Assembly: GCA_003132325.1 (NCBI GenBank)
Contig: PKXK01000075.1
Coordinates: 23,763-87,762, forward strand
Origin: Acidobacteriaceae bacterium
GTDB lineage: Bacteria > Acidobacteriota > Terriglobia > Terriglobales > Acidobacteriaceae
Length of the DNA: 64,000 nucleotides
Direction: 5' to 3'
Position numbers and translations under genes: made by a program. Position 1 is the first letter of the stretch. Every line of letters starts with the position of its first letter. A model generated the notes under the pieces. It was not told the origin of the DNA and did no database searches. It saw nothing but the letters and a program-made list of their open reading frames with translations. Below are positions 20,536-42,614 of this stretch, piece after piece.

Positions 20536-20537
20536 GC

Positions 20538-21192: not shown

Positions 21193-21996
21193 ATGCACTT
21201 GGTCGTCTGCCTCAAGCAAATCCTCGATCCCGAGATTCCATCGAGCGATTTCAAATTAGACACGCAGGCACGCGGTCCAGCGGAAGGTATTGCTTCGTTC
21301 GTGCCCAGTATCTTCGACGAAAATGCCCTCGAAGTCGCTCTCCAGGTCCGTGAAGCCGCAGGAGCCGGAAAGATCACCGCCATCTCGATCGGGCCGGATT
21401 CCACGATTGACGTTGTGCGCAAAGCGCTTTCCATGCGGGCCGACGAGGCCATTCTCATTCGCCAGGGCGAATTCCCCGATCTTGACACCTATGGCACCGC
21501 GCGCATTCTCGCCTCCGCTATTCGCAAGCTGGAACCTGCCGACCTTATTCTTTGCGGCCGGGAGTCCGGCGACTGGTACGGAGGTCAAGTGGCCGCCTTC
21601 CTCGCGGTAGAATTCAATTATCCTTACACCGCGCTCGTGGCTGCCGTTTCCCAGCAGGGAATGGAATGGCACTTTCGCCGCCAGTCTGATGACGGCTGGG
21701 AAACCATTGCGTGCTCGGTTCCGGCAGTGGTGAGCGTGACCAACGACGATCATAATTTACCCCGCATACCCAAGGTCCGCGACAATATGATCGCCTTCCG
21801 CAAAACCATTCCGGCATGGACCGCGAAGGACCTCGGCCTCGAACCCCAGTCGACCCGCGGACCCAACGCTGAGCTTGAACTGGAAAAACTCTATATTCCC
21901 CAGGTATCCCGGCAATGCCGCATTATCGCAGGGGACAACGTGGATCAGAAGGCAGAGCAGTTGGCGCAACAACTCGCCGACCTGCATGCCATTTGA
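21193..21996 (+). CDS. etfB: Electron transfer flavoprotein beta subunit
   Basis: MHLVVCLKQILDPE.., ..LILCGRESGDWYGGQV.., ..VVSVTND.. form the typical EtfB pattern. Confidence 0.9.
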   Translation: MHLVVCLKQILDPEIPSSDFKLDTQARGPAEGIASFVPSIFDENALEVALQVREAAGAGKITAISIGPDSTIDVVRKALSMRADEAILIRQGEFPDLDTYGTARILASAIRKLEPADLILCGRESGDWYGGQVAAFLAVEFNYPYTALVAAVSQQGMEWHFRRQSDDGWETIACSVPAVVSVTNDDHNLPRIPKVRDNMIAFRKTIPAWTAKDLGLEPQSTRGPNAELELEKLYIPQVSRQCRIIAGDNVDQKAEQLAQQLADLHAI

Positions 21997-22014
21997 AAGA
22001 GATCTGGATAGCAC

Positions 22015-23016
22015 ATGCGTAGTGTGGTTGCTGTTCTTATCGCCAATCATAACGAGCTCGGGCGCACCGAAATCGAAGTGTTGAGCGTCGGCGTGCGCCT
22101 CGCGGAGGATCTGGGCGGCACGCTGACTGCCGTCCTTCTCGGCGAACCGCCCGCCAGCTTCGCGCCCAGCTGCTTCAGCTATGGAGTGAACCGGGTAGCA
22201 GTTGCCGAAGGTCCAGTGTTCTCTGCATACCAGCCGATAGCGTTCTCTGCCGCGATCAAGCAGGTCATTCGAACTATCGGGGGCGACGTTCTCCTCTTCC
22301 CCAGCACCACCTCCGGACTGGAATTGGCCCCTCTCTCTGGACACAAGCTAGGCGCCAGTGTAGTGATGGACGCCGTCGGGGTTGATGGCAAAGTAGACGG
22401 CGGCGGAATCCGCATCCACAAGCCAGTCTTTGGTGGAAAAGCCCAAAGTCTGCTCATCGCCCGCAAAGCGCCGGTTGTCGTTGCGCTCCGGATGCGCTCG
22501 ATCGCACCCGTCGCCAAGCAGGAGAACACCCCGGGAGAAATCATCAAAGTTCCCGTGACCGTTACTTCTCCCGCCGGAACTTGGCGCTTAGTTGATCGCA
22601 ACGTGGAGCAGTCCGAGGGCCTTCGTCTCGAGGACGCCCGCATTGTGGTCAGCGGCGGCCGCGGTCTCGGCGGCAAAGAAAACTTCGCTTGCCTGGAAGA
22701 ACTCAGCAGAGTACTCGGCGCCGCTCTCGGTGCATCCCGCGCCGCCGTGGATCTGGGATGGGTCCCTTCCACCTGGCAGATCGGTCAGACCGGCAAAAAG
22801 ATTGCGCCAGACCTGTACCTCGCGGTGGGCATCTCCGGAGCTAGCCAGCACATGGTTGGGATCGCCGGGGCCAAGCATATCGTCGCCATTAATAAAGATG
22901 ACAAAGCGCCGATCTTTCAGATGGCGGAATTAGGGGTCATCGAGGACTATCGCGAATTCATTCCCAAGTTGATTGAGGCGGTCAAGAAACGCAAGGCTTC
23001 CGCCACCACACTATGA
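22015..23016 (+). CDS. etfA: Electron transfer flavoprotein alpha subunit
   Basis: ..[60 protein letters not shown].. is the EtfA FAD-binding signature. Confidence 0.9.
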
Positions 23017-25019
23017 CGCCGACGCGCCAAGTCTATTTCAACATCACCCAGGTTTGGGTGATGTACCTGCTGTTCGCGATCACGCTGGCGGTGTTTTGCC
23101 ATGGCATCTACCGTCATTGGCGTCGCTGGCAAATCGGAAGGCCCGTACAGCGTCTCGATCAGCTTGGTACCCGTCTGAGGCTATTGCTAAAGCAGGCCCT
23201 CGGCCACGAGAAGCTCCTCAAGCGCTATTCCGGCGCGGGAGTTGCGCATCTTCTCATTTTCTGGGGCTTCGTTTTTCTCTTCATCGGCACCGTCGTGGTC
23301 TTTATTCACGAGGATCTCCACATCCACATCATGCAGGGCAGCTTCTATCTGTATTTCGAATCGCTGACCCTGAACACCTTTGGCGTGTTGTGCATCGCGG
23401 GAATCGTCGCCGCGCTGGCTCAGCGCTACGTCCGCAGGCCGAAACGGCTGAAGCCCGATAAGCCGGACGATGCCATTATTCTGCTTGCAATGCTGCTCAT
23501 CCTGGTGACCGGCTTCATGATCCAAGGTCTGCGGATTCAAATCACCCACGATCCGTGGGCGGCTTGGTCACCCTTCGGCAAGGCTGCCGGAATCCTCTTT
23601 GCCAGATTTCTCAGCTCTGCTCAAATGCTCGTCCTGCACCGCGCGATCTGGTGGTTCCACCTCGTCGTCGTCTTCTCCTTCATCGGCTGGATCCCCTACT
23701 CCAAGCTGTTCCACGTCTTCACCGCTCCAGCGAGCATCTTCACGCAAAACCTCACGCCCCGCGGCCAGCTTCCCTTGCTGAACCTGGAAAAAGAAGAGGA
23801 ACCGCTCGGAGTAAGCCGGCTGCAGAATTTCTTCTGGAAAGACCTGCTCGATCTCGACGCCTGCACCGAGTGCGGCCGCTGCGAGGTGAACTGTCCGGCC
23901 TTTCTAACCGAGAAACCGCTCTCCCCCAAATGGCTCATCCTGGACGCGCGCGAGTCTCTGCACGCTCACGCGTCCAATGGAGACGGAAACTCGACGGACC
24001 CGGAGGCGCCATCTCCGCTGGTTGGGCCAGTTATAAAGGAAGAGACTTTGTGGTCCTGCACAACCTGCGGCGCTTGCATGGAACAGTGCCCGGTCGCGAT
24101 TGAGCACGTGCCCAAGATCGTCGGTATGCGCCGCCATCTGGTGATGGAGCGCGCGGAGTTCCCCGGAGACCTGGAAAACATGGTGCGCAGCCTCGAAGCC
24201 CGGGGCCATCCTTATCCTGGAGCCAGCGCGTCGCGCACCGACTGGATGCAAGGGCTTCCCGTAAAGTCCCTGGCCGACCAGCCCAACGCCGAGTTTGAAG
24301 TTCTGTTCTGGGTCGGCTGCGCCGGGGCCCTTAACCAGAGGAGCCAGTCCGTTACCCGCGCTGTCGCGGAACTGCTGGCCCGTGCGGGGGTGAAGTTTGC
24401 CGTGCTCGGGCGCGAAGAGCGATGTACCGGAGACTCCGCGCGACGCATTGGGCACGAATTCCTCTTCCAGACCTTGGCGCAGCAGAACATCGCCACCCTC
24501 GACCGTTATAAGGTCAAGAAGATCGTTACCGCCTGCCCGCACTGCTTTAACACAATTAAGAACGAGTATCCGCAACTTGGCGGCAATTATGAGGTCGTGC
24601 ATCACAGCGAGTTCTTGGCCGAACTCGTCGCCCAAGGGCGCCTGAAACCGAGAGAAGCCCCGACCGGCAAAGTCACCTTCCATGATCCCTGTTACCTCGG
24701 CCGCTACAACCAGATCTACGATGCGCCACGGAATCTGCTGGACAGCCTTCCCGGAGTCGAGCGCTCGGAACCCGAATGGAACCGCCGCAACGCTCTCTGC
24801 TGCGGCGGAGGTGGCGGCTTCTCCTTCATGGAAGAAAAACGTGGCACGCGCATGAACCAAAACCGCTCCCGCCAGCTATTGGCGACTGGGGCCGACACCA
24901 TCGCCGTCGGCTGCCCCTTCTGCATGATCATGCTGGAAGACGGCGTGAAGACCGCGGCCCCGGACGAGGCCGTACCAGTGCGGGATATCGCCGAAATCTG
25001 GAAGGCGGCAACCGAATGA
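23013..25019 (+). CDS. Membrane-bound Fe-S oxidoreductase, HdrD/DsrK-like with NarI-like N-terminal membrane domain (EtfD-like ETF:quinone oxidoreductase)
   Basis: About 5 hydrophobic helices in the first ~250 aa. Two ferredoxin motifs (CTECGRCEVNCP, CTTCGACMEQCP) and two CCG-type Cys-rich regions (..WVGCAG.., ..ALCCGGGGG..). ATGA-type overlap with etfA. Confidence 0.85.
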   Translation: MTPTRQVYFNITQVWVMYLLFAITLAVFCHGIYRHWRRWQIGRPVQRLDQLGTRLRLLLKQALGHEKLLKRYSGAGVAHLLIFWGFVFLFIGTVVVFIHEDLHIHIMQGSFYLYFESLTLNTFGVLCIAGIVAALAQRYVRRPKRLKPDKPDDAIILLAMLLILVTGFMIQGLRIQITHDPWAAWSPFGKAAGILFARFLSSAQMLVLHRAIWWFHLVVVFSFIGWIPYSKLFHVFTAPASIFTQNLTPRGQLPLLNLEKEEEPLGVSRLQNFFWKDLLDLDACTECGRCEVNCPAFLTEKPLSPKWLILDARESLHAHASNGDGNSTDPEAPSPLVGPVIKEETLWSCTTCGACMEQCPVAIEHVPKIVGMRRHLVMERAEFPGDLENMVRSLEARGHPYPGASASRTDWMQGLPVKSLADQPNAEFEVLFWVGCAGALNQRSQSVTRAVAELLARAGVKFAVLGREERCTGDSARRIGHEFLFQTLAQQNIATLDRYKVKKIVTACPHCFNTIKNEYPQLGGNYEVVHHSEFLAELVAQGRLKPREAPTGKVTFHDPCYLGRYNQIYDAPRNLLDSLPGVERSEPEWNRRNALCCGGGGGFSFMEEKRGTRMNQNRSRQLLATGADTIAVGCPFCMIMLEDGVKTAAPDEAVPVRDIAEIWKAATE

Positions 25020-25069
25020 GCACAGACATGAAACCGACCTCGATGGAGGCAGAGTTCTAACCGACCTTT

Positions 25070-26236
25070 ATGATCTCAACTGGTCAAACCATCCGGCAAA
25101 CGCCGCCGCTTGAGGTCCTGAACGGCTATCTCCACGACTACGGAGAGAGCGTGCGCCGTTTCTTTCGCGAACAGCAGCGCTCGGCGATGATCTCGCCACT
25201 CTTCAATCTGCCGGGACGGCTCATCCTGGGAAGCTACTGCTATTACGAAAACCTGAGACCACTTCTCCTCGAGTTGCTGCAACACACCACGCCGGAAGCG
25301 ATCGGCCGCAATATGCGCAAGCTCGGTTCGCGCGCCAATTCCATCCATCTGAACTCGCTGATGCTCGGCTACTTCAACGGCCGCGAGCAGCTTCGGTTGC
25401 TGGGAAAGCAGCCGCAGGACGACCTCGACGAACTCGCCTTTATCCTCGACTTCTGGGCCCGTGCTGCAAAGTCCTATCGCAGCGATGGCCACCACCTTCC
25501 CGACGACGCGGATTTCACGATGCCTGTTCTTTCGAAGCAAGATGTGGAAGCCCTCACTGCACAGCTGCGTGGAAGCTGGCCCGAAGAGATCAAGAACAAG
25601 ATCCGCCGCATGATGGCCACCCTCGAGCTCTACACCTTTATCCTCAACGGAGAGGCGCGCATCGGAGTTTTCCATCACGGACCTTACGCCCTCGCTAACG
25701 GGGACGTGCTGGTGGTCAAGGAACTGATTGGCCTGCGAGAGAACTTCTTCCCGTGGGCACATACCGACGCGCGTCCCGGCTGTGATGCCGTTGCCCGGGT
25801 GATGCGCCTTCGCGGGGTGCAAGCGAAGATCGTGCTGATGGGCAGCATGACCACGGTTCCTTCGTCCTACGAGGGAAACATCGTCGCGCAAGCAATTTTG
25901 CGGGTGGACGGCGGCGAAATCCGCTCCGTGGTGCCCGAAGAAATGGACGCGATCACCCAGGCAGCGGCCGAAGCTCAGCTCGAACTCTATCGCCGCATGA
26001 TTGACTGGGACAACCGCTACCGCGTGGAGTATGGGGCTGAACTATACGCCTGCATCCTGAATACTTTCGCGCAAAAGTTGCCTTTGCCCGATTTCGCGGA
26101 CAGCATCCGCCAGAATTTCCGCCGGTCAATTGACCGGCACCTCGACGACCTGTTCACCGGTCGCGAAACCCCGGCGGTGTTGAGTCACATTGCCAAAACC
26201 GATGGGCCGATTTATTCACCCATCGTGGTGAAATAA
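25070..26236 (+). CDS. Conserved hypothetical, unknown family A, copy 1
   Basis: 388-aa ORF in the operon frame with normal composition. Clear paralog of 26241-27452 and 57846-59036 (shared LFNLPGR, RRMMATLELYxFILxGExRxGxFxHGPY, FxPW, TxGPxxxP). I recognise no known domain. Confidence 0.7.
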   Translation: MISTGQTIRQTPPLEVLNGYLHDYGESVRRFFREQQRSAMISPLFNLPGRLILGSYCYYENLRPLLLELLQHTTPEAIGRNMRKLGSRANSIHLNSLMLGYFNGREQLRLLGKQPQDDLDELAFILDFWARAAKSYRSDGHHLPDDADFTMPVLSKQDVEALTAQLRGSWPEEIKNKIRRMMATLELYTFILNGEARIGVFHHGPYALANGDVLVVKELIGLRENFFPWAHTDARPGCDAVARVMRLRGVQAKIVLMGSMTTVPSSYEGNIVAQAILRVDGGEIRSVVPEEMDAITQAAAEAQLELYRRMIDWDNRYRVEYGAELYACILNTFAQKLPLPDFADSIRQNFRRSIDRHLDDLFTGRETPAVLSHIAKTDGPIYSPIVVK

Positions 26237-26240
26237 CTTA

Positions 26241-27452
26241 ATGAGCGCCGTGCACAACCCGATGTCGGTCGAAGAGATCAACCGCTGCATCCGGCTTTTC
26301 GGAGATGCCCAGAAGTCCTTCATGCACGCTGAAAAGCGTGCCGGGTTGCGCTCCGTGCTCTTCGACATCCCTCGCCGGTCCTCGATCGGCTGGCACTGCA
26401 TTTATGAAAAGGGCGCCGCGTTCCTCCGCGAGTTGTCGAATTACGCTTCCCCGGAAGAGCTGGGGCGGCGCATGCAGCGCCTGTGCTCGCGTCCTTACTA
26501 CCTGACACTCTCGATCATGATGTGCAGTTACCTGGGAGCGCGGCAGCAAATTATGCTTGACCACGGCCTCTTGCCTGACAGTGGATTCTCGGAGGAGAAA
26601 ATCGAAGAATTGGGTTTCATCATTGACTGGTGGAGCCGTGTTTGTCGCGCTTATCGTAGCGATGGACTGCTTCTCCCAGAACAAGCGAATAACACCCAGG
26701 AAATCCTCCCAGCCCCAACTGCGAGCGCAATCGATGGGCAGTTACTGCCGATGGAAACGGAAACCACCCACCGGCTTCGCCGCATGATGGCCACTCTCGA
26801 GCTCTATTGCTTCATCCTGCACGGCGAGCAGCGAGATGGTATCTTCGGCCACGGTCCGTACCCCGCCTGCGATGGTTCTCAGCTCGTCATCCTGGAATTT
26901 ACTGATCTCCAGAATGATTTTCTTCCGTGGGCGGAAACCAAAGTTAGGAATCCATATGCCAACCTCGCCGTCGCCCTGCGGATCAAAGGCGCGGCTGCCG
27001 AGTTCCGGCTCTTCGGCAGCATGCTGCTGAACCCGCCGGACCTCGCGGAGTCCTTGCAAGCGGGGCGCCTCTTCACGCGCGCTGCCGACGACCAGATTCT
27101 GCCCATTCCTTTCTCCGAAATGCCGTTTATCCAGCGCTGTGCCGCCGATGCGCAAAACGAACTTTATCTGAAAGCTGGGGAATGGTCGCCCCGCTTTCAG
27201 GCAGAATACGGCGTCCACTTGTTCGCCAATCACCTGCGCTCATTTTTTCATCTGACAGAACTCGGCAGCAGTTATGACGAGCGGATTCGCCAGGAGTTTC
27301 AATCCGCGGCGGTCCCGCTGATCGAGACTTTACTTTTGCAAAAGGAACCGCCTTCCATGTGGAGGTTCATGGCCACCACGGAAGGCGACTTTTTCTGGCC
27401 TATAGCGATCCACCAGGAGGTGCCGGCACACAATGTCCACTCGCAAGGTTAA
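26241..27452 (+). CDS. Conserved hypothetical, unknown family A, copy 2 (tandem paralog)
   Basis: 403 aa. RRMMATLELYCFILHGEQRDGIFGHGPY.., ..DFLPW.., ..TTEGDFFWPIAI. It starts 5 nt after copy 1 ends. Confidence 0.7.
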   Translation: MSAVHNPMSVEEINRCIRLFGDAQKSFMHAEKRAGLRSVLFDIPRRSSIGWHCIYEKGAAFLRELSNYASPEELGRRMQRLCSRPYYLTLSIMMCSYLGARQQIMLDHGLLPDSGFSEEKIEELGFIIDWWSRVCRAYRSDGLLLPEQANNTQEILPAPTASAIDGQLLPMETETTHRLRRMMATLELYCFILHGEQRDGIFGHGPYPACDGSQLVILEFTDLQNDFLPWAETKVRNPYANLAVALRIKGAAAEFRLFGSMLLNPPDLAESLQAGRLFTRAADDQILPIPFSEMPFIQRCAADAQNELYLKAGEWSPRFQAEYGVHLFANHLRSFFHLTELGSSYDERIRQEFQSAAVPLIETLLLQKEPPSMWRFMATTEGDFFWPIAIHQEVPAHNVHSQG

Positions 27453-29583
27453 ACCCGCCGCCCACGCGGCCACAACAAACGGTAAGGAAAAGGGCGAGTA
27501 CTTCTGCGGCATCGACATCGGTGGCACGTTCACCGATTGCGTGGTGCGCGACCAGGCGGGACGCCTGACTATCGCCAAAGCGCTCTCTACGCCGGAAGAG
27601 TCTTCCAAAGGCTTTTTCGCGGCGCTCGATGCCGCCGCCGCCAAACTCGGCCTGACTCTGCACGACCTGCTGTCGAACACGCAGCTTCTGCTGCACGGGA
27701 CCACTCTCGGCACCAACGCACTGCTGGAACGCAAGGGCGCCAAGACCGGACTCATCACCACTCGCGGTCACGCCGACGCCATCATCATGATGCGTTCGGT
27801 TGGCCGCTCCGCCGGACTCCCGCTTGACAAACTCCACCACGTCTCGCGTCATCAGAAGCCGGTTCCTCTCGTCCCTCGCAGCCTGATCCGCGAAGTCAGC
27901 GAGCGCATCGACTTCAGCGGGGAAGTTCTCCTGCCGCTGAACGAAGACGAAGCTCGCACCGCCATCCGCGAGTTGCTCGATCAGGGCGTACAAGCAATCG
28001 GCATCTGTTTTCTCTGGGGATTTGCCAATCCTGCCCACGAGATCCGTGTGCGCGAAATGATCGAAGAAATGGCGCCTGACGTGTACGTTACCTGCGGGCA
28101 TGAACTGATCTCCAAACCCGGCGAATATGAACGCGCCGCCGCCGTCGCCATCAACTGCTTCATTGGCCCCATGATGTCGCGCTACGTCATTCGCATCGAG
28201 GAACAAGCCCGTGCCCTCGGATATCGCCGGCCGCTTGTCATCATGCAATCTTCCGGAGGCGTGGCCGGCGCGGCGGAAGTTGCCCGTACGCCGGTCTTCA
28301 CTATCGGCTCCGGGCCCGCCGGGGGCCTCACTGCCAGCGGTTTTCTCGCCTCGCTGCTCAAGCAAAACAATGTTATCGCCTCCGACGTCGGCGGTACCAG
28401 CTTCGACGTTGGATTGGTGAGCGACGGCGTTCCCCTCTCCGGGACGGAGACAACCGTAAATCAATACACATTTTCCGCCCCCCACCTCGATCTGGTCTCG
28501 ATCGGCAGCGGCGGCGGCTCCATCATCTGGGTGGATGAGAAAACCGGGGGCCTCAAAGTCGGGCCCGAATCCGCCGGAGCCAATCCCGGCCCCGCTTGCT
28601 ACGGCCACGGCGGCACGCGCCCTGCGGTCACTGACGCCGACCTGATTCTCGGCTACTACAATCCCGATTACTTCCTCGGAGGGAAGCTGCAACTCGACAA
28701 GGCCGCCGCCACCTCCGCCATGGACAGAGTCGGTCGCCTGCTTGGCATGACCGCCGTGGAGACCGCTGCCGGAGCCGTCCAGATCGTTGAGTTCCAAATG
28801 GCAGAACTCATGCGCCAGATGACCGTCGAACGCGGCTTTGATCCCCGCGATTTCGTCGTCTACGGGTACGGAGGCGCAGCCGGCGCGCACGTCGCCGAGT
28901 ACACCCGCGAATTGGGCTGCCGTCGGGTCGTAGTCCCGCTCGGCGCCACCGCCTCCACCTGGTCGGCGCTGGGAGTCCAGGCGGCCGATCTTCTGCACGT
29001 TTACGAAAAATCGCGGCTGTTCATGGCACCGTTCCCCAGCAAGGAGTTCAACCAGATTTTCGAAGAGCTCGAACGGCCAGCCCGTCTGCAACTCCACAAA
29101 GATGGGCTGAAAGACAGCGATATTGCCATCGAACGCGCCGTGGAAATGAAATTCAAACTCCAGATCCACACCGTCGAGGTTCCGCTGCGCTGCGGCAAGC
29201 TCAGCGACCGGCACGTCAAGGAACTTGAGACTGCGTTCATCGAGAAGTACGAACGCACTCACGGGCGCGGCTCGGCCTTCACCGCCGCCGGAATTGAAAT
29301 CGGCCTTTTCCGCGTGCGGGCACGCGGCCGCATTCGCCGGCCATCGCTTCAGAAAAGGACAGCCGTCAAATCGGCCGGCGCCATCGACCGCCGCGAAGTT
29401 TACTGGCGCCGTTTTAAGGCATTCCGCACAACGCCCATCTACGATGGGGCGCGGCTGAAAACCAACGCGGTCGTGAAGGGCCCAGCCATTGTTCAGCTGC
29501 CCGAAACCACCATCGTCGTTCCACCGCGTGATGAAGGACATTTTGATGGTTACGGAAATTTTCTTTTGACCTTGTCCGACTGA
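27433..29583 (+). CDS. Hydantoinase/oxoprolinase A family ATPase (acetone-carboxylase beta-subunit-like)
   Basis: GIDIGGTFTDCV (Hydant_A_N), ..DVGGTSFDV.., ..IGSGGGSI..; 716 aa. It overlaps the previous gene by 20 nt. Confidence 0.9.
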   Translation: MSTRKVKPAAHAATTNGKEKGEYFCGIDIGGTFTDCVVRDQAGRLTIAKALSTPEESSKGFFAALDAAAAKLGLTLHDLLSNTQLLLHGTTLGTNALLERKGAKTGLITTRGHADAIIMMRSVGRSAGLPLDKLHHVSRHQKPVPLVPRSLIREVSERIDFSGEVLLPLNEDEARTAIRELLDQGVQAIGICFLWGFANPAHEIRVREMIEEMAPDVYVTCGHELISKPGEYERAAAVAINCFIGPMMSRYVIRIEEQARALGYRRPLVIMQSSGGVAGAAEVARTPVFTIGSGPAGGLTASGFLASLLKQNNVIASDVGGTSFDVGLVSDGVPLSGTETTVNQYTFSAPHLDLVSIGSGGGSIIWVDEKTGGLKVGPESAGANPGPACYGHGGTRPAVTDADLILGYYNPDYFLGGKLQLDKAAATSAMDRVGRLLGMTAVETAAGAVQIVEFQMAELMRQMTVERGFDPRDFVVYGYGGAAGAHVAEYTRELGCRRVVVPLGATASTWSALGVQAADLLHVYEKSRLFMAPFPSKEFNQIFEELERPARLQLHKDGLKDSDIAIERAVEMKFKLQIHTVEVPLRCGKLSDRHVKELETAFIEKYERTHGRGSAFTAAGIEIGLFRVRARGRIRRPSLQKRTAVKSAGAIDRREVYWRRFKAFRTTPIYDGARLKTNAVVKGPAIVQLPETTIVVPPRDEGHFDGYGNFLLTLSD

Positions 29584-29595
29584 GGAGGCTCGCTC

Positions 29596-31887
29596 ATGGT
29601 TTCACCGTCTGTGCAATGGGATGGCCGCAACTATCCGTACGTGGCCCCGAAAAAACTCTCGATTGATCGCAGCCTCAAGCTGCACACTGCCGCCGAGGCA
29701 AGCATCGATCCTGTCACCTACGAAGTCGTGCGCCACGCCATGTGGAACATGAATGTCGAACACGGCAACACCATCATGAAGATTTCGGGCTCGCCCATCT
29801 GCGCCTACGGGCACGACTTCAATCCTTGCCTGCTCGATGAGATCGGAGACTTCGTTTTTTTCGGTCCCTTCCTGCAATACCTTGGCTCTGCCACTACCTC
29901 TGCCATCAAGTGGACGCTGGAAAATCGTTCCACTAATCCCGGCATCGAGGACGGGGACATCTTTCTGACGAACGATCCGTGGATTGGAGCCACGCATCAA
30001 TCCGATGTCACCCTGATCGCTCCGCTGTTCTGGGAAGGCAAACTCTTTTGCTGGGTGGGCAACACGCTCCACCAGTGGGATCTCGGCGGGACTTCCCCCG
30101 GGGGCTTCAATCCCCAGGCGCCGGATATCTTTTCGGAAGCCGGCTGCATTCCGCCGATAAAGATAGTCGAAAAAGGTCGCCTGCGCCGCGATATCGAAGA
30201 GGAATACATCCGCCGCTCCCGTGTGCCGCAGTTGGTGGCCCTCGATCTGCGCGCCGAAATCGCTGGCTGCAATGTGGCCCGCGAGCGCATGCTCAGTCTC
30301 ATCAAGCGCTACGGCCCGGAAACCATCAAAGGCGTCATCCGCAAACTCCAGAACGATTCCGAGAAGGCTTTCCTGGCCCGCCTGAACACCATTCCCGACG
30401 GCACCTGGCGCGAAGTCGGCTGGATCGAGATGGCAAACACGCAGGATCGCCATATTTACCGCAACGCTCTCACGCTCACCAAACGAGGCAACAAGCTGAT
30501 CTTCTCCAACGAAGGCACCGACCCGCAGTCCGGCACGCTGAACTGCACCATGGTCGCGTGGAAAGGCGCCATCGCCTCCATGATCTGCGCCCAGATGCTG
30601 TTCGACCAGATGTTCGTGGTCGAAGGCGCCTATCGTCACTGTGAATTCAACGCGACCCCGGGGACGCTGACCTGCGCCACCTATCCCGCCGCGGTAAGTG
30701 CCGCACCCGCTCTGACGCTGCTGCAGACGATTGCGCTGGCCGGACTGGTTATCTCGAAAATGCTGGCCTGCTCTTCCGATCCCGAACTCCGCAAGGAGGT
30801 GCAAAGTTGCATGGGAGCGGCCATGTATCCGATTGCCGCATTCAACGGAATCGATCAGCGCAAATCTCCATTCGTTTCCTTCCTGCTCGATCCGGTGGGC
30901 GCCGCACTGGCCGGCCTCTCGTGGCGCGACGGCGTGGACACCGGCGGTTGGCCCTGGGACCTGCAAAGCACCATGCCCAACGTCGAAGAGCATGAATGGT
31001 TCTATCCCATCTTTTATCTATGGCGGCGTGAACTGAGAGATTCCGGCGGTGCCGGCAAGTTCCGGGGAGGCAACTCCGCCGAACTCGCCTTCATCCCGCA
31101 CAAAACCGATCGGCTCACCTTCATTACCGCAACCGGCCACGCCGCGGTTCCTCCGCCGGGATTGTTCGGCGGATCGCCTCCCTCGACGACCCGCTATACC
31201 ATCAAGCGCGACGCCCGCGTCCGCTCGCACATGAGCGAGACGGGCAAGATGCCCGACACGCTGGAAGATCTGCCCGGCAAGACTGAGTATCTCGCGCCGA
31301 AAAGCTTTAACATTCCCGCCCTTCCCGACGACGTGTTTGTGCTTGCCTGGGCAGGCGCCGGGGGCTACGGAGATCCGCTCGAGCGCGATCCGGAAGCCGT
31401 GCACCGCGACCTGGTGAATGGCAACATTACCGCGGACTGGGCCAAGCAGGCGTATGGTGTGGTATTCGATCAGAGTGGCAAGCTTGATAAAGCCGCCACC
31501 GATCATATCCGCGATCAACTTCGTGCCGGGCGACTGGCCAACGCGCCGAAGAAGGAGCATTTCAAAGCCAACGTGGACGGCGCCCGCCAGGTGGCAGAAG
31601 GGTTGTTGCTCGTCGGCTTCGGCAGCGAGGCCTTCCTCGCCTGCGCCAAGTGTCACACCCGCATCAGCCGTGCTCGCGACAATTACAAGCTGCACTGCGT
31701 AACCGAATCACACCCGGTTACCGCAGCGAATCCGCACATCTTGGATCCTAAAACTTACATCGACGATGCTGTCGTTTTCCAGACTTACGTGTGTCCCGGA
31801 TGTGGCCTGCTCCTGCAAACTGAGATCCTGCGACCGGGCGGCGAACCGCTCTGGGATCTGCAACTCGCCGAGGTGAAGCGCAAGTGA
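29596..31887 (+). CDS. Hydantoinase B/oxoprolinase family subunit (acetone-carboxylase alpha-like) with fused C-terminal gamma-subunit-like Zn ribbon
   Basis: DPVTYEVVRHAMWNMNVEHGNTI.. and ..GAGGYGDPLERDPEAVHRDL.. form the HyuB core. The last ~110 aa carry CAKC...CPGC (two CxxC pairs). Confidence 0.9.
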   Translation: MVSPSVQWDGRNYPYVAPKKLSIDRSLKLHTAAEASIDPVTYEVVRHAMWNMNVEHGNTIMKISGSPICAYGHDFNPCLLDEIGDFVFFGPFLQYLGSATTSAIKWTLENRSTNPGIEDGDIFLTNDPWIGATHQSDVTLIAPLFWEGKLFCWVGNTLHQWDLGGTSPGGFNPQAPDIFSEAGCIPPIKIVEKGRLRRDIEEEYIRRSRVPQLVALDLRAEIAGCNVARERMLSLIKRYGPETIKGVIRKLQNDSEKAFLARLNTIPDGTWREVGWIEMANTQDRHIYRNALTLTKRGNKLIFSNEGTDPQSGTLNCTMVAWKGAIASMICAQMLFDQMFVVEGAYRHCEFNATPGTLTCATYPAAVSAAPALTLLQTIALAGLVISKMLACSSDPELRKEVQSCMGAAMYPIAAFNGIDQRKSPFVSFLLDPVGAALAGLSWRDGVDTGGWPWDLQSTMPNVEEHEWFYPIFYLWRRELRDSGGAGKFRGGNSAELAFIPHKTDRLTFITATGHAAVPPPGLFGGSPPSTTRYTIKRDARVRSHMSETGKMPDTLEDLPGKTEYLAPKSFNIPALPDDVFVLAWAGAGGYGDPLERDPEAVHRDLVNGNITADWAKQAYGVVFDQSGKLDKAATDHIRDQLRAGRLANAPKKEHFKANVDGARQVAEGLLLVGFGSEAFLACAKCHTRISRARDNYKLHCVTESHPVTAANPHILDPKTYIDDAVVFQTYVCPGCGLLLQTEILRPGGEPLWDLQLAEVKRK

Positions 31888-33458
31888 ACATCGGCCTCAT
31901 CGCATCGCGTAACGCACACCGCTATTGCAATAAGATCGCGCTGGTTGACGCCAACGCCGGCCGCCAGGTGACTTGGCGAGAATTCAACGATCGTGTCAAT
32001 CGCTTGTCGCATGCTCTCCTCTCGCGACAGCTGACCAAGGGCGACCGCGTTGCCATCTACTCCAGAAATTCGCTTGAGTACCTCGAACTCTTCATGGCCT
32101 GTGCCAAAACTGGAATCGTGGTTGAACCGATGAACTGGCGGTTTACACCCGAAGAAGTCGCGGCCACGCTGCGTGACGGCACGCCTCGCGTCATCCTGGT
32201 CAGCAATGAATACGCGGACTGCTATCGATCGATCAGCTCCGGTCTGCCGTTCATCGAACTGGTGGTCGGAATCGGCAATGGGCATGGTTTCGACACGGAT
32301 TACGATGCGTGGATCGCTACCTGTGCGAATTCCGAGCCCGAAACCGTCCACACCGTGGGCGATGACGATCTCTACTTCATCTGCTACACCGGTGGCACCA
32401 CGGGCGTGGCGAAGGGCGCCATGATCACCCATAAGAACGCCTACACCACCATGGTGAACATGACGGTTGCCGAGCAGATTACCTCGAACGACGTTTACAT
32501 CATCATGGGCCAGATGTTCCACATCGCAGTGCTCCTGCCGCACGGTTACATGTTCCATGGCGCCAAGGTCATCATTCTCAACTTTGATCCGCGCCGCGTG
32601 TTGCAGGTCATCCAGGAGCATCGAGTCACGACCCTTCTGGCCATCTCCACGATGATGAACTACATCATGGACGTGCCCGGCTTCGGCAACTTCGACACCA
32701 GCACACTCCGTCTCATCTCCTACGGCGGCGGCCCCTTCGCGTCCACCACCCTCGAACGCGCCATGCGAATGTTTCCGGGCATAGGCTTCCTGCAATATAT
32801 GGGACAAACCGAAGTCAGCATCATGTCGGCATGGCTGGGCCCCGAAGATCACGTCCGCGGGTTGGAAGACAATCCCGGCCTGCTCCACTCCTGCGGGCGC
32901 GAGGCCCTTCTTTGTGACGTTCGGGTCGTGGACGAACACGATCAGGACGTCCCGCGCGACGGGAAAACTCCCGGCGAGATGATTGTGCGCGGCGGAAACG
33001 TTATGCGCGGCTACTGGAACATGCCCGAACTCACCGCGGAGACCCTGCGCGGAGGCTGGTGCCACACCGGGGACATCGCCACCTGGGACGCCGACGGCTA
33101 CATGTACGTGGTCGATCGCAAGAAAGACATGATCGTCTCCGGAGGCGAAAACATCTTCAGCGCCCGCGTTGAGGAGATCATCTACCGGCACCCGGCCGTA
33201 AAGGAATGTGCTGTGATCGGAGTCCCTCATCCCGTGTACGGAGAAACTGTGAAGGCCTGCGTCGTGCTGCGGGAAGGCTACACCGCCACCGCCGAAGAAA
33301 TCATCGAGAGTTGCCGCCCTCACCTCGCCAGCTATCAGAAGCCGACCTCGGTAGAATTCCTTGATGCCCTCCCCAAATCCCCAACCGGCAAGCTCCTCAA
33401 ACGGGTCCTGCGGGAAAAACATTGGGGCGACCACTCCCGCCGAGTAGGAGGCGCCTGA
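31884..33458 (+). CDS. AMP-forming acyl-CoA synthetase/ligase
   Basis: GTG start overlapping the hyuB stop (GTGA). ..ICYTGGTTGVAKGAM.., ..GWCHTGDIA.., ..DRKKDMIVSGGENI.., ..PKSPTGKLLKR... Confidence 0.9.
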   Translation: MNIGLIASRNAHRYCNKIALVDANAGRQVTWREFNDRVNRLSHALLSRQLTKGDRVAIYSRNSLEYLELFMACAKTGIVVEPMNWRFTPEEVAATLRDGTPRVILVSNEYADCYRSISSGLPFIELVVGIGNGHGFDTDYDAWIATCANSEPETVHTVGDDDLYFICYTGGTTGVAKGAMITHKNAYTTMVNMTVAEQITSNDVYIIMGQMFHIAVLLPHGYMFHGAKVIILNFDPRRVLQVIQEHRVTTLLAISTMMNYIMDVPGFGNFDTSTLRLISYGGGPFASTTLERAMRMFPGIGFLQYMGQTEVSIMSAWLGPEDHVRGLEDNPGLLHSCGREALLCDVRVVDEHDQDVPRDGKTPGEMIVRGGNVMRGYWNMPELTAETLRGGWCHTGDIATWDADGYMYVVDRKKDMIVSGGENIFSARVEEIIYRHPAVKECAVIGVPHPVYGETVKACVVLREGYTATAEEIIESCRPHLASYQKPTSVEFLDALPKSPTGKLLKRVLREKHWGDHSRRVGGA

Positions 33459-33797
33459 ATGCCAAAAATTGGACAAGGCCTGCTCACTTCCGGCCGCGAA
33501 TGCCAAGGCACGCTGCGCGTCGTGGACACTATTCCGGATGTCCTCCGACTCATGCGGGAGGACCTCTCGGACGTAATCCTCTTCATGCAGTCGGCATCGG
33601 CCACCGCCGCTACTCCGCTTTTTGCGAAGATCAAGGGCATTGTCTGCACTGCCGGTGGGGCCACGTCTCACCTGGCGATCGTCGCACGTGAATTTGATCT
33701 ACCTTGCGTGATGGCCAGCGCGATGGAACACACCAACGGTCTTGACGGCCGCAGAGTCAGACTGAACCAGAAAGGCGAGATTTTTCTCGACAACTGA
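33459..33797 (+). CDS. Stand-alone PEP-utilising-enzyme mobile (phosphohistidine swivel) domain protein
   Basis: 112 aa. ..IKGIVCTAGGATSHLAIVAREFDLPCVM.. is the PEP_mobile signature with the catalytic His. The ATG directly abuts the ligase TGA. Confidence 0.85.
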   Translation: MPKIGQGLLTSGRECQGTLRVVDTIPDVLRLMREDLSDVILFMQSASATAATPLFAKIKGIVCTAGGATSHLAIVAREFDLPCVMASAMEHTNGLDGRRVRLNQKGEIFLDN

Positions 33798-34705
33798 TGG
33801 ATCGCCCCCCCACTCAAACCCGCGTCTACATCAATCTCGGCTTCCCCGAACTGGCGGCCAAGTATGCCAAGCTGCCCTGCGACGGCGTTGGCTTAATGCG
33901 TGCCGAGTTTTTTGCGCTCTCCATGGGAATCCATCCCAAGAAGCTGATCGCCGACGGGGGCGACATTGCGTTCATCGATTCCTTCGCCAATGGCTTGGCC
34001 ACAGTCGCCCAGGAATTCGCACCCCGACCGGTATTCTTTCGAACGCTGGACCTAAAATCCAATGAATACGCCGGCCTCGAAGGCGGCGGCCAATACGAGC
34101 AGCGCGAAGAAAATCCCATGCTCGGCTTTCGCGGCGCCTCCCGCTACCTTGCCGATCCCGAAAGCTTTCGCCTCGAACTCCGGGCGGTGAAGCGCGTGCG
34201 CGACGGAGGCCTGCGAAACGTTCGCCTGCTGCTCCCCTTCGTCCGTTTTCCACGAGAACTGAAAAGATGCCGCGAAATCGTTGAACAGGAGGGCCTGTTC
34301 GCCGATCCGGAGTTCGAACTCTGGATGGTCGCCGAGGTCCCCTCCAACGTCTTGCTGATTGACGAATTTCTGCCGCTGGTGTCCGGCATCTCGATCGGTT
34401 CCAACGACCTCACGCAGCTTATGCTCGGAATTGACCGCGACAGCGCTCGCCTGGCTAAGGAATTCGACGAGCGCGATCCCGCGGTCCAGAACGCAATCGC
34501 AATCATCGCGAAGGCCTGCCGGGCCGCGGGGAGGCCGGTCTCCATTTGCGGAAATGCGCCATCGCGCTATCCGGAACTCGTTCCCAGGTTGATTTCCGCG
34601 GGCCTGACCAGCCTGTCGGTTTCACCGGAAGCGTTTGAAGCCACGCTCAAGGCTGTGGTCGAGGCCGAAGCCATGTTGGGATTTGCTGCAAGACCGCTCC
34701 AATAG
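33797..34705 (+). CDS. Stand-alone PEP-utilising-enzyme C-terminal TIM-barrel (PEP/pyruvate-binding) domain protein
   Basis: ..DGVGLMRAEFF.., ..NPMLGFRGASRY.., ..ISIGSNDLTQLMLG.., ..VSICGNAPS.. are the PEP-utilizers_C signatures. The start overlaps the previous stop (TGATG). Confidence 0.85.
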   Translation: MDRPPTQTRVYINLGFPELAAKYAKLPCDGVGLMRAEFFALSMGIHPKKLIADGGDIAFIDSFANGLATVAQEFAPRPVFFRTLDLKSNEYAGLEGGGQYEQREENPMLGFRGASRYLADPESFRLELRAVKRVRDGGLRNVRLLLPFVRFPRELKRCREIVEQEGLFADPEFELWMVAEVPSNVLLIDEFLPLVSGISIGSNDLTQLMLGIDRDSARLAKEFDERDPAVQNAIAIIAKACRAAGRPVSICGNAPSRYPELVPRLISAGLTSLSVSPEAFEATLKAVVEAEAMLGFAARPLQ

Positions 34706-34759
34706 AACGGCCGTCAGGTTACTGCCGGCCGAATGACGAAATGCTGGGTGCTAACTCCT

Positions 34760-35686
34760 ATGTCTGAACCTCAACCGCAAGACGACTTCATCCATCCCAC
34801 CGGCGAAGAGCCCACCTGGCGCGAAGCCTGCTATTTTGATTTCTTCGATCCCGCCAGCCGCCTCTCCAGCTTCGGCTACATTGGCGTGCACCCCAACCAG
34901 CAAGTTGGCGACGTCATTTTCGCCCTCTGGCGCGACGACGTTCTTCTCGGCAGCTTCACCCGCTGGGACTTCAACATCCCGCGCGATATCGGCGCAGAGC
35001 GCCTCGGCTTCGGGCATCTCTTCTTCCGGCCGGTCGAGCCGTTCAAAACCTGGGAAATTTATTTCGATGATGGCCGCGTCCGCGTGGACACCACCTTCCA
35101 CGCTATCCATCCCGCCTACTTTTGGGGCCAGTCTCACGGTGCGCTCGAGAAAACCAACAGCCATCACTACGAACAGCAGGGACGCTACACCGGCGAAGTG
35201 CGGGTTGGAGCGGAACGCTACAAAATCGATGGCGTCGGCGTCCGCGACCACGCCTGGGGATGGGGCGCCCGCGCGGGCATCCGCCGCTGGATCTGGGCCT
35301 CCGCGCAGTTTTCCAGCGGCTTTGCTTTCAATACCTTTCTGATTACCCTGGCGGACGGCCGCGAAATTCTATACGGATATATCTGGCGGGGAAAACAGAA
35401 CGAATTGATCCGCCGTTCGACGCTGAAGGCTGAATACGCGCCCAAAGGCCAGGCTCCCGCCGCGCTCACGCTCGCCATGGAAGGCCGCAATGGGGATCGG
35501 GTCAGCGCCACCGCTAGAGTCCTCAATGCCTTCAACACCTCGTTCCAGGAGCGCAACAAGACTGGCTATCACTACTTCGGCGCGGCCAAATTCCAATGCG
35601 AAGGCCAAGTTGGCTACGGACAGATCAACGTGCACTGGCAAAAACAGGAAGACCGTCCGGAAAACTGGACGGTCTCGCAGGAGTAA
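34760..35686 (+). CDS. Conserved hypothetical, unknown family B, copy 1 (beta-rich, RDHAWGWG motif)
   Basis: Paralog of 56766-57701 and 60005-60877 (shared ..EPxWREAxYFxFYD.., ..GxGxRDHxWGxx..W..). The MSEPQPQ start was chosen by alignment to the paralogs; ATG at 34733 is possible. Confidence 0.7.
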   Translation: MSEPQPQDDFIHPTGEEPTWREACYFDFFDPASRLSSFGYIGVHPNQQVGDVIFALWRDDVLLGSFTRWDFNIPRDIGAERLGFGHLFFRPVEPFKTWEIYFDDGRVRVDTTFHAIHPAYFWGQSHGALEKTNSHHYEQQGRYTGEVRVGAERYKIDGVGVRDHAWGWGARAGIRRWIWASAQFSSGFAFNTFLITLADGREILYGYIWRGKQNELIRRSTLKAEYAPKGQAPAALTLAMEGRNGDRVSATARVLNAFNTSFQERNKTGYHYFGAAKFQCEGQVGYGQINVHWQKQEDRPENWTVSQE

Positions 35687-35692: not shown

Positions 35693-36871
35693 TCAATTGT
35701 AGGACTCAACGATCAGTGTGATGCCTTGCCCGCCGCCAATGCAGGCGGTCGCCAAGCCGTACTTCCCTTTTCTGCGCCGCAGTTCGAGCAGCAACGTGAA
35801 CACCAGCCGTGTTCCGGTCGCGCCCAGGGGGTGCCCCAGCGCAATCGCGCCGCCATTCACGTTGGTCTTCTCACGATCCAGCCCGAGTTCTTTTTCCACT
35901 CCGAGATACTGCGCCGCAAAGGCCTCGTTCACTTCGACCAGGTCCATGTCCGCGAGTTTCAGACCCGCTTTTTTCAAGGCTTCCTTCGAGGCCGGCACAG
36001 GCCCCAACCCCATCTCGGCTGGATCCACACCTGCGATTCCCCAGGACACGATTCTTCCCAGCGGCTTGCCGCCCGATCCTGCGATCGCGTTTTCATCCGC
36101 GATCACGACCGCGGCTCCGGCGTCAACGATGCCGGAGGCATTCCCGCCGGTGACCGTACCATCTTTTCCAAAAGCTGGCCTCAGCTTAGCCAATGCCTCA
36201 ACGGTTGTGTCGGTCCTTACGTGGTCGTCAAGCTCGTACTGTTCTGTTCCCTTTTTCGATTTGATTTCGACCGGCTGGATTTCTTCCTTCAATCTTTCAC
36301 GCGCCGCCGCGGCGCGCTTCTGGCTCACGCAAGCGAACTCGTCCTGATGCTCGCGAGTAAGGCCATATCTCTTCGCCACACGCTCCGCCGTTTGTGCCAT
36401 GTAAAGGCCGCAGTAGGTGTCGTAGAGAGATGACATCAGCATATCGATCAATGTCGACGATCCCAATCGCAGTCCCCACCGCGCCCCAGGGATGACGAAT
36501 GGCGCCTGGCTCATCGATTCCATCCCGCCCGCCAGCACCCGCGTTGCCTCGCCCAATTGGATCATCTGGGCGCCGCTCACAATGGACTGAATCCCCGACC
36601 CGCACAGCCGGTTCACCGCAAAAGCCGGCCGTTCCTTCGGGATTCCCGCCCGCAATGCTACATGGCGCGCGGCATAGATTGCATCCGGCCCGCTTTGCAC
36701 CACGTTGCCCATCACCACGTGATCGATCTGCTCCGGCGCGGTTCCCGTGCGCTCCAGCGCCGCTTTCGCCGCCACCACCGCAAGATCGGTCGCCGACATC
36801 TCTTTGAACTGCCCGCAGTACTCCGCCATCGGGGTACGTGCTCCGCCAAGTATCACTACGCTCTTCTGCAT
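35693..36871 (-). CDS. Acetyl-CoA C-acetyltransferase (thiolase II)
   Basis: ..VNRLCGSGIQS.., ..NEAFAAQ.., ..NGGAIALGHPLGATG.., ..ACIGGGQG.. form the complete thiolase signature. Confidence 0.9.
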   Translation of the reverse strand: MQKSVVILGGARTPMAEYCGQFKEMSATDLAVVAAKAALERTGTAPEQIDHVVMGNVVQSGPDAIYAARHVALRAGIPKERPAFAVNRLCGSGIQSIVSGAQMIQLGEATRVLAGGMESMSQAPFVIPGARWGLRLGSSTLIDMLMSSLYDTYCGLYMAQTAERVAKRYGLTREHQDEFACVSQKRAAAARERLKEEIQPVEIKSKKGTEQYELDDHVRTDTTVEALAKLRPAFGKDGTVTGGNASGIVDAGAAVVIADENAIAGSGGKPLGRIVSWGIAGVDPAEMGLGPVPASKEALKKAGLKLADMDLVEVNEAFAAQYLGVEKELGLDREKTNVNGGAIALGHPLGATGTRLVFTLLLELRRRKGKYGLATACIGGGQGITLIVESYN

Positions 36872-42612: not shown

Positions 42613-42614
42613 GC

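Follow-up and report, generated by a model that had tools for sequence, protein, structure and literature searches.

Gene Content of the Cassette

We describe here a gene cassette carried by a 64,000-nucleotide stretch of DNA, hereafter the window, from an uncultured peat Acidobacteriaceae bacterium (assembly GCA_003132325.1, contig PKXK01000075.1, positions 23,763 to 87,762 of the forward strand). The cassette lies on the plus strand at 21193-35686 and combines a phosphohistidine swivel domain and a phosphoenolpyruvate (PEP)-binding TIM barrel, encoded as two separate small proteins, with two copies of a protein family of novel fold (family A), a relative of 25-phosphosteroid lyase (25-PSL; family B) and an acetophenone-carboxylase-like enzyme. 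Its composition and its relatives elsewhere suggest a phosphotransfer system built around family A and a dedicated swivel, set within a catabolic pathway.

The string opens with etfB (21193-21996; Pfam ETF) and etfA (22015-23016; Pfam ETF and ETF_alpha), which also stand upstream of the cassette in other Acidobacteriota loci, followed by an EtfD-like membrane Fe-S oxidoreductase (23013-25019) with a NarI-like N-terminus, a 4Fe-4S domain and two CCG domains (Pfam CCG, Fer4_8, Nitrate_red_gam). The two family A genes, A1 (25070-26236) and A2 (26241-27452), precede a HyuA-type ATPase subunit (27433-29583; Pfam Hydant_A_N, Hydantoinase_A and Hydant_A_C), a HyuB-type subunit ending in a gamma-like Cys4 Zn ribbon (29596-31887; Pfam Hydantoinase_B and Acetone_carb_G) and an AMP-forming acyl-CoA ligase with a GTG start (31884-33458; Pfam AMP-binding and AMP-binding_C). 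The free swivel of 112 aa (33459-33797) consists of the PF00391 mobile domain alone, with His71 as its phosphohistidine, and the free PEP-synthase-type TIM barrel of 302 aa (33797-34705) of PF02896 (PEP-utilizers_C) alone. The last gene is the family B copy Bb (34733-35686; DUF7065 and DUF7064), whose probable start at 34760 agrees with ortholog lengths better than the longest-ORF start at 34733.

The open reading frames that a first-pass annotation had reported between 25070 and 35686 are all found on the plus strand at their coordinates, in agreement with the ORF list and the family scans, and the junctions that it had read as GTGA, TGA-ATG and TGATG are borne out by the measured gene spacing. 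The distances in nucleotides, with overlaps given as negative values, are -4 for etfA/etfD-like, +4 for A1/A2, -20 for A2/HyuA, +12 for HyuA/HyuB, -4 for HyuB/ligase (GTGA), 0 for ligase/swivel (TGA-ATG), -1 for swivel/TIM (TGATG) and +27 for TIM/B. A BktB-like thiolase II gene (35693-36871, minus strand; Pfam and NCBIfam) converges on the cassette, a position repeated in loci L004 and L012. The first-pass annotation had placed this thiolase and a ScoAB-like pair in the same regulon; both are present, and, being on the minus strand, they lie outside the cassette transcript.

Conservation of the Gene Set across Phyla

A scan of species-representative genomes returned 41 loci, all from metagenome-assembled genomes (MAGs); counts for this group, clade 1, refer to its 26 loci of at least 15 kb. 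In high-GC loci, GC3-based gene calling replaced longest-ORF calling, which was unreliable there. The 26 species-level loci span Acidobacteriota, Gammaproteobacteria, Clostridia and Actinomycetota with several gene orders, and the gene set is kept in other phyla at 44-70% protein identity. The window proteins are 90-99% identical to those of peat and bog Acidobacteriaceae MAGs (L008-L011). Loci whose family A homologs are 55-69% identical hold the series etfBA, EtfD-like, B, A1, A2, HyuA, HyuB, ligase, swivel, TIM and B, and adjoin the same divergent operon of VOC, amidohydrolase, enoyl-CoA hydratase (ECH), thiolase-like and DUF35 genes.

The A1-A2 pair occurs in all 26 loci, swivel plus TIM in 25, a CoA ligase in 23, B in 22 and HyuAB in 18. 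HyuAB is present in every one of the 18 non-actinobacterial loci, those with rearranged orders included, and in none of the 8 from Actinomycetota within 10 kb. The gammaproteobacterial order reads HyuA-HyuB-B-A1-A2-swivel-TIM-B, and it is this rearrangement that makes the linkage of the cassette functional rather than a matter of inherited synteny. In Actinomycetota, swivel-TIM-A1-A2 leads into genes for ADP-forming acyl-CoA synthetases, for B-like and luciferase-like proteins and for a CrtI-like flavoprotein; Thermoleophilia have ADP-forming ligases and no HyuAB, and retain the phosphotransfer module. The gene string is far from a chance assembly. The expectation that HyuAB, ligase, swivel, TIM, A and B would keep company in other genomes is borne out in several phyla, with HyuAB in the non-actinobacterial loci. 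The view that the combination is undescribed agrees with a literature search, which gave no description of it; searches on hydantoinase together with PEP-utilising and steroid terms, on Rv3169 and on isoprenoid ketone carboxylation gave nothing usable.

Family A, a Novel Fold Partnered with the Swivel

A1 and A2 are paralogs (34% identity, E 5e-75) and, in line with their earlier description as an unknown family present twice, have no Pfam match even at E<=10, none in NCBIfam at E<=0.01 and no match among PDB sequences. An AlphaFold (AF2) model of the family, built on a 48-sequence alignment, is confident (pLDDT 92.6, pTM 0.91), and Foldseek found no structural neighbour for it in the PDB (best E 2.4, TM <=0.14) or in BFVD. 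A confident model without a structural neighbour or Pfam match rules out that A is a hidden ATP-grasp, an APH kinase or the substrate domain of a rifampicin phosphotransferase (RPH).

An exhaustive profile search with family A retrieved only 298 clusters among 1.84e9 representatives. Three distant members (P0184, P0204 and P0268) are natural fusions of an N-terminal swivel, its His motif kept, to an A domain; A adjoins a swivel in every clade, and in Actinomycetota swivel plus A, or swivel plus TIM plus A1 and A2, occur without HyuAB. The fusions and the occurrence of A with swivel in the absence of HyuAB identify family A as the direct evolutionary partner of the swivel. R37, R105, R197, Y206 and W229 (A1 numbering) are conserved across 149 superfamily members, and these three invariant arginines with a tyrosine and a tryptophan would fit a phosphate or anion site. 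The first-pass annotation had proposed that swivel and TIM act with the Hyu enzyme or the ligase. The co-occurrence of HyuAB in 18/18 non-actinobacterial loci agrees with that proposal, which has to yield to family A as far as the direct evolutionary partner is concerned.

Two further clades extend this picture. Clade 2, found from one of the fusions, comprises more than 1,390 proteins from Acidimicrobiia and others, with a swivel (free or fused), then A, then a protein of about 215 aa whose gene overlaps the A stop codon. The Acidimicrobiia trios (for example L005 10001-12135 and L006 9613-11775) consist of swivel, A and a half-size DUF7065-like protein; they sit in a housekeeping-type neighbourhood with H+-PPase, succinate dehydrogenase and DUF3097 genes, and no TIM, ATP-grasp, carboxylase or ligase was found within 10 kb. 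The protein of about 215 aa had been considered kin of the C-terminal extension of long A proteins; it gave no BLAST match to it and is DUF7065-like instead.

Clade 3 was collected from metagenomes with a single-protein query and is widespread in soil, freshwater and marine samples (80 loci, L050-L129, of which 41 entered the gene counts). Its layout is swivel, A, an unrelated domain designated A3C, and a protein joining a PPDK_N ATP-grasp to a second swivel; PPDK_N occurs in 32/41 loci and TIM in 0/41. A3C as a diverged A or B was ruled out by hhalign (probability <1%), and a C-terminal extension present on some clade-3 A proteins gives a winged-helix-like hint that is not significant (E 0.076). 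The A, swivel and ATP-grasp genes stand amid genes for biotin carboxylase, BCCP, a PYC_OADA-type carboxyltransferase, an AMP-forming ligase and thiolases (L061 961-13944), and the biotin carboxylase, BCCP and PYC-type carboxyltransferase set occurs in about 19-25 of the 41 loci in several gene orders. The clade-3 operon may itself be an undescribed biotin-dependent ketone-carboxylating system.

Across the clades, A and a dedicated swivel are the invariant core, with an interchangeable donor module, either TIM with PEP or ATP-grasp with ATP. That A and swivel stay constant while the donor module is exchanged is the chief ground for placing A on the acceptor side, and A1/A2 are proposed as the phosphoryl-acceptor (substrate) subunit. 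That A and swivel, with TIM where it is present, form a phosphotransfer unit is very probable.

The Probable Phosphoryl-Donor Side

The swivel matches PF00391 with E 9.9e-14 and bears the motif GGATSH...ARE with its phospho-accepting His; H71, S70, R77 and E78 are invariant in 35 unique orthologs. The TIM barrel matches PF02896 with E 1.6e-64, and a PEP/pyruvate site is predicted. It is about 50% identical to the C-terminal domain of PEP synthase (9dae, 289 bits), with Enzyme I reaching only 79 bits, and aligned with 9dae, 2ols and 8a8e it keeps RAEF, GFRG, EVPS, GSNDLTQ and SICG; the Cys motif is kept in 30/31 orthologs. Judged from these alignments, the catalytic motifs of the swivel and TIM barrel of PEP-utilising enzymes are retained in the split proteins. 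As the first-pass annotation had stated, neither has an ATP-grasp partner in the operon: Pfam finds no PPDK_N in 21193-35686, and the only one in the window, at 61001-63682, comes with its own swivel. No HPr-binding domain or HPr partner was found in Pfam and NCBIfam scans of the cassette.

The resemblance of this pair to Enzyme I, its nearest non-dikinase relative, admits a regulatory reading, in which TIM and swivel, like Enzyme I(Ntr), would report PEP/pyruvate status and phosphorylate A, which in turn would control the catabolic enzymes. The winged-helix-like hint in some clade-3 A extensions would agree with such a role. However, A1/A2 carry no DNA-binding domain, the loci already hold TetR or GntR regulators, the A, swivel and TIM genes are translationally coupled with enzymes, the TIM barrel is PEP-synthase-like rather than Enzyme I-like, and the steady pairing with the lyase-like B is left unexplained. 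A phosphorelay is on these grounds highly improbable.

A second module in the window, at 56.7-63.7 kb, shows the other type of donor. It comprises a family B copy, Ba (56766-57701, minus strand; Pfam DUF7064/7065, motif RDRMWG), a third family A paralog (57795-59036, plus strand; hhalign against the family A alignment, probability 100%, E 1.5e-56, 32% identity), a gene of metallo-beta-lactamase fold (59118-59930, plus strand), a further DUF7065/DUF7064 protein (60005-60877, minus strand; Pfam 60 bits, motif RDHSWG) and an 893-aa protein made of a PPDK_N ATP-grasp, a middle domain and a C-terminal swivel (61001-63682, minus strand; PPDK_N 266 bits, PEP-utilizers 74 bits). The gene at 60005-60877 is co-directional with the ATP-grasp-swivel gene and lies 123 nt downstream of it; the matches of the latter in NCBIfam are PRK06241, RPH and PigC-like, all under cutoff. 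By predicted domain content, this genome therefore brings A, B and a swivel phosphotransferase together in two places, the donor being of PEP type in one and of ATP type in the other.

The ATP-type donors also bear on the possibility that the cassette is an alternative PEP synthase or pyruvate phosphate dikinase (PPDK), with A as a nucleotide or pyrophosphate (PPi) module in place of the ATP-grasp and with pyruvate/PEP interconversion recycling AMP, phosphate (Pi) and PPi. The module does have the architecture of PEP synthase minus the ATP-grasp, HyuAB-type enzymes and the AMP-forming ligase both release AMP, and the invariant arginines of A could bind phosphates. Nevertheless, A has no known nucleotide-binding fold, and it is not a replacement for the ATP-grasp, because genuine PPDK_N domains exist beside it in clade 3 and in the second module. 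Thermoleophilia, moreover, retain the module with ADP-forming ligases and no HyuAB, and Acidimicrobiia have A and swivel without TIM. This alternative is improbable, and the AMP/PPi recycling that the first-pass annotation had offered for swivel and TIM is graded unlikely with it.

Family B, Relatives of 25-Phosphosteroid Lyase

Family B, first taken for an unknown family, belongs to DUF7065 plus DUF7064 and is a structural relative of 25-PSL. Bb scores 55.5 and 55.2 bits against these two models (gathering scores 27 and 24.7) and 60.5 bits against NCBIfam Rv3169_fam, under the cutoff of 150. The AF2 model of family B is all-beta (pLDDT 92.3), and its five best PDB neighbours in Foldseek are all 25-PSL entries (9g4c, 9fzn and 9g2i, released January 2026; E 2.4e-16, TM 0.70/0.62), ahead of fungal Diels-Alderases and kievitone hydratase of the same fold. 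A B profile run against the PDB sequences gave 25-PSL as its sole significant match (9fzn_A, E 1e-4), and the 25-PSL fragment in turn matches DUF7065 alone in Pfam, weakly (E 0.006).

The conserved G-x-R-D-[HR]-x-W-G of family B aligns with GSRDRSWG of 25-PSL, and the RD[HR]xWG motif is kept in all three full-length copies of the window (Ba, Bb and 60005-60877). Entry 9g4c, a trapped product complex, has Asn in place of the motif Asp; this deposited D->N variant suggests that the Asp is catalytic. B accompanies A and swivel in 22/26 clade-1 loci, as a half-size protein in Acidimicrobiia whose homology to B covers the DUF7065 half (E 1.8e-24 with phmmer, E 7e-13 with a profile), and beside the ATP-grasp-swivel gene of the window. 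The structural kinship of B with 25-PSL suggests a kinase-plus-lyase logic for the cassette, and whether B acts as a lyase on the phospho-product of the module is an even call.

Ba is 44-45% identical to the 'a' copies that stand upstream of A1 elsewhere, compared with about 31% to the 'b' copies. In distant Acidobacteriota and Gammaproteobacteria, a DUF7065/7064 gene lies directly upstream of A1, where the window has a 50-nt gap; this slot (25019-25070) is empty in the window lineage and in L008-L011, and the window ortholog of the upstream copy is placed 31 kb off, at 56766-57701. A heteromeric 25-PSL that would parallel Ba and Bb was considered and dropped, as each PDB entry holds one sequence.

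The HyuAB Enzyme, the CoA Ligase and Possible Carboxylation

HyuA falls in the superfamily that takes in acetophenone and acetone carboxylases, caprolactamase and oxoprolinase. The best PDB match of HyuA is the gamma subunit of acetophenone carboxylase (5l9w_B, 432 bits) and that of HyuB is 5l9w_A of the same enzyme (186 bits). At its C-terminus, HyuB carries Acetone_carb_G (E 7.6e-7) with CxxC pairs at 683/686 and 733/736; HyuA-type, HyuB-type and gamma Zn-ribbon parts are thus all present, the gamma part as a C-terminal fusion to HyuB. The NCBIfam equivalog cutoffs are missed (ApcC 435 against 1500 bits, ApcD 211 against 1500, caprolactamase alpha 563 against 1000), and the ligase scores 469 bits against PRK06187, whose cutoff is 476. 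The gamma-type Zn ribbon on HyuB favours a carboxylase over a lactamase. That HyuAB serves as the ketone carboxylase of the same pathway is a proposition that stands in the balance.

A and swivel co-occur with two non-homologous carboxylases, HyuAB-gamma and the biotin-dependent type, and with CoA ligases of two superfamilies. This recurrence implies that the pathway passes through a carboxylic acid, probably one of the beta-keto type. It also sustains a different account of the cassette, in which A1/A2 would bind a ketone, the charged swivel would phosphorylate its enolate in an isoenergetic PEP:ketone transphosphorylation, and HyuAB-gamma, or biotin carboxylase in clade 3, would carboxylate the enol phosphate; the beta-keto acid would then undergo CoA ligation and thiolysis, with B as a carrier or auxiliary protein. 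The frequencies suit this account (HyuAB-gamma in 18/26 clade-1 loci, the biotin type in about 19-25/41 clade-3 loci, CoA ligases, drawn from two superfamilies, in 23/26 loci, and recurrent thiolases). Acetone carboxylase is thought to run through phosphoenol-acetone, PEP synthase phosphorylates the enolate of pyruvate, and PEP and ATP-grasp dikinase donors can both reach the energy of an enol phosphate. On the other hand, HyuA-type subunits already use ATP to activate their own ketone, so a second activation would be redundant, and in Actinomycetota, where swivel-TIM-A1-A2-ligase-B is kept, no carboxylase was detected within 10 kb. The reaction of the closest relative of B is C-O cleavage in an alkyl phosphate, which is not applicable to an enol phosphate, and B is missing exactly where the biotin carboxylase occurs. 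The handling of a phosphoenol-ketone, raised in the first-pass annotation, is retained as a serious rival, the foremost of the three, because A and swivel also keep company with an unrelated biotin-dependent carboxylase; it is not the favoured reading and, on the whole, is doubtful.

Catabolic Surroundings

The flanks of the cassette encode steroid- or terpenoid-type catabolism: IpdAB-like CoA-transferase pairs, ChsH2/DUF35 and SCP-x-type thiolase-like proteins, acyl-CoA dehydrogenases, a BaiCD-like OYE flavoenzyme, a CrtI/HpnE-family flavoprotein, SnoaL, SDRs and a TetR regulator. The divergent operon (15655-21005, minus strand) consists of a VOC/methylmalonyl-CoA-epimerase-like gene (20538-21005), an Amidohydro_2 gene (19648-20535), an enoyl-CoA hydratase (18846-19721), two SCP-x-type thiolase-like genes (17722-19083 and 16561-17718) and a DUF35/ChsH2-type OB protein (15655-16410), an order repeated in L001-L004 and L008-L025. 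The longest ORF of the thiolase-like gene at 17722-19083 overlaps the ECH gene by about 240 nt; its true start is probably near 18846, because family matches begin near residue 80. The Amidohydro_2 protein, without an NCBIfam match at E<=1e-10, is 68-69% identical to those of Thermoleophilia/Miltoncostaeaceae MAGs (L035 and L044), compared with 38-55% for the other shared genes, an excess that suggests horizontal transfer or very strong constraint.

The IpdAB-like pairs of CoA-transferase fold lie at 11316-13005 and 41800-43514 (about 299 plus 262-270 aa); IpdAB is used in hydrolytic ring opening during degradation of steroid C/D rings. The ScoAB-like pair is at 4840-6311 (minus strand), near a fused 553-aa CoA-transferase at 3128-4789. 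Four luciferase-like (LLM) genes (40587-41717, 45507-46637, 46544-47578 and 47989-49032) are present as well, and LLM and CrtI-like flavoprotein genes also stand beside the module in Gammaproteobacteria (L049) and Actinomycetes (L031). An acyl-CoA synthetase, a 'phytoene dehydrogenase' and a 'luciferase' are reported to co-enrich with 25-hydroxysteroid kinase (25-HSK) from cholesterol-grown Sterolibacterium (PMC8449060); the likeness of that trio of families to the present one may be coincidence. A large TonB-dependent-type outer-membrane barrel of 1093 aa with an N-terminal CarboxypepD_reg domain (51899-55180), encoded after the catabolic genes and before the second module, may serve to take up a substrate that is bulky and hydrophobic.

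Proposed Mechanism and Points against It

From these observations we infer the direction of phosphoryl flow, the acceptor site on A, the lyase reaction of B, carboxylation by HyuAB and the class of substrate. The TIM barrel would move a phosphoryl group from PEP to His71 of the swivel, and the phospho-swivel would phosphorylate a hydroxyl of a lipid-like intermediate held by the A1/A2 complex. B would then eliminate phosphate to leave an alkene, so that in sum PEP would drive the dehydration of an unreactive alcohol, probably a tertiary one, on a sterol- or terpenoid-like molecule. HyuAB-gamma would carboxylate a ketone that this pathway itself produces, the AMP-forming ligase would form the CoA thioester, which thiolases and the divergent operon of beta-oxidation type would shorten, and ETF with the EtfD-like protein would pass electrons from acyl-CoA dehydrogenases to the quinone pool. 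The substrate is probably sterol- or terpenoid-like and activated by phosphorylation without oxygen; tertiary alcohols of sterol side chains, hopanoids and other terpenoids are, by our own reasoning, chemically attractive candidates. Phosphorylation by 25-HSK, with ATP converted to ADP, is reversible with a Keq of 0.34 (PMC8449060), and a donor at the level of PEP would presumably make such a step irreversible.

Taken as a whole, this scheme of PEP-driven phosphotransfer on A, elimination by B and carboxylation by HyuAB is plausible, if slightly more apt to fail than to hold. Several observations count against it. B and 25-PSL share only about 15% identity and a fold common to enzymes of other chemistry, the half-size B-like protein of Acidimicrobiia has no motif Asp, and the Acidimicrobiia loci show no phosphoryl-donor module within 10 kb. 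Clade 3 has no detectable B and yet has the biotin carboxylase; this, with the presence of HyuAB in all 18 non-actinobacterial loci, means that phosphorylation may be coupled to carboxylation and not to elimination. In the second module, A need not be the acceptor site, because the RPH-like protein has a middle domain of its own. The top NCBIfam model of HyuA, below cutoff, is caprolactamase alpha, which makes a hydrolase role possible. Finally, no hydroxylase creating the tertiary alcohol was identified.

Comparison with Known Systems

The nearest functional parallel is the ATP-dependent dehydration of a tertiary steroid alcohol in the cholesterol side chain by 25-HSK and 25-PSL of Sterolibacterium denitrificans (PMC7411048, PMC8449060, PMC11061730), in which 25-HSK is described as a 40-kDa kinase of the phosphotransferase family (APH-type) that converts ATP to ADP (PMC7411048, PMC8449060). 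The cassette shares with it the 25-PSL fold and the motif with its putative catalytic Asp in B, the pairing of B with a phosphotransferase, and a steroid/terpenoid-type context with CoA ligase, CrtI-like flavoprotein and luciferase-like proteins. Its predicted kinase, in contrast, is a three-part swivel-His system of PEP-type TIM, swivel and novel-fold A rather than a single APH-type protein, and it adds HyuAB. The 25-PSL of entries 9fzn, 9g2i and 9g4c is the long-missing partner of 25-HSK. The cassette is not the Sterolibacterium dehydratase itself, since 25-HSK is APH-type, no APH/phosphotransferase-family kinase domain was found in the cassette proteins with Pfam and NCBIfam, and the window holds no Mo hydroxylases.

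Like PEP synthase, PPDK and Enzyme I, the cassette pairs a phospho-His swivel with a TIM barrel that binds PEP, the catalytic residues of both being kept; unlike them, it splits these into proteins of 112 and 302 aa, has neither ATP-grasp nor HPr-binding domain, and apparently takes its third site from family A. Phenylphosphate synthase, which acts in anaerobic phenol degradation ahead of phenylphosphate carboxylase and a CoA ligase, is a PEP-synthase-like enzyme in split form. It too is a multi-protein swivel phosphotransferase in a catabolic operon, and its order of phosphorylation, carboxylation and CoA ligation parallels the co-occurrence seen here. It differs in using ATP through an ATP-grasp subunit, in having no TIM, A or B and in its UbiD-type carboxylase; the PpsB-like ATP-grasp subunit is absent from the first module, and the clade-3 relatives have PPDK_N plus swivel.

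With acetophenone and acetone carboxylases (Apc and Acx), the cassette shares HyuA-, HyuB- and gamma-type parts and the Zn-ribbon signature, whereas its gamma part is fused to HyuB, a second HyuA-like subunit and an epsilon subunit are missing, and its Hyu genes are set among those for A, B, swivel and TIM. Enzymes of the RPH/PigC type phosphorylate hydroxyl groups via a swivel His. The 893-aa protein of the second module has their ATP-grasp-swivel architecture and adjoins family A and 25-PSL-like genes, a setting not described for RPH or PigC.

Significance

Dehydration by a kinase together with a phospho-lyase is already known, as are phosphotransfer by PEP-utilising enzymes and carboxylases of the Hyu type, each on its own. 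The division into TIM, swivel and a novel-fold protein, the exchange of donors, the pairing with 25-PSL-like proteins and the association with carboxylases were not found described in the literature searched. It is possible, and put forward with more reserve than the scheme above, that A and swivel represent a new modular branch of the PEP-utilising enzymes, a small-molecule phosphotransferase with a novel-fold acceptor site and a donor that switches between PEP and ATP; the PEP-utilising family would then extend past the dikinases and the phosphotransferase system (PTS).

To our knowledge, only a few model denitrifiers are documented to attack sterols and terpenoids without oxygenases at their tertiary alcohols, at unactivated side chains or at ketones that are not activated. 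The cassette points to another, modular phosphorylation machine in the abundant uncultured Acidobacteriaceae of peat and in members of other phyla. It offers a testable role for the unannotated family A and for DUF7065/7064 (the Rv3169 family, also present in mycobacteria), and its genes can serve as markers of this kind of metabolism in metagenomes from peat, soil and the sea. If the proposal is true, the window would hold the first case of a lipid catabolite activated by a kinase that draws on PEP instead of ATP, in concert with lyases like 25-PSL and a fused enzyme resembling acetophenone carboxylase, and uncultured soil, peat, freshwater and marine bacteria would activate inert sterol or terpenoid alcohols or ketones for oxygen-independent elimination or carboxylation.

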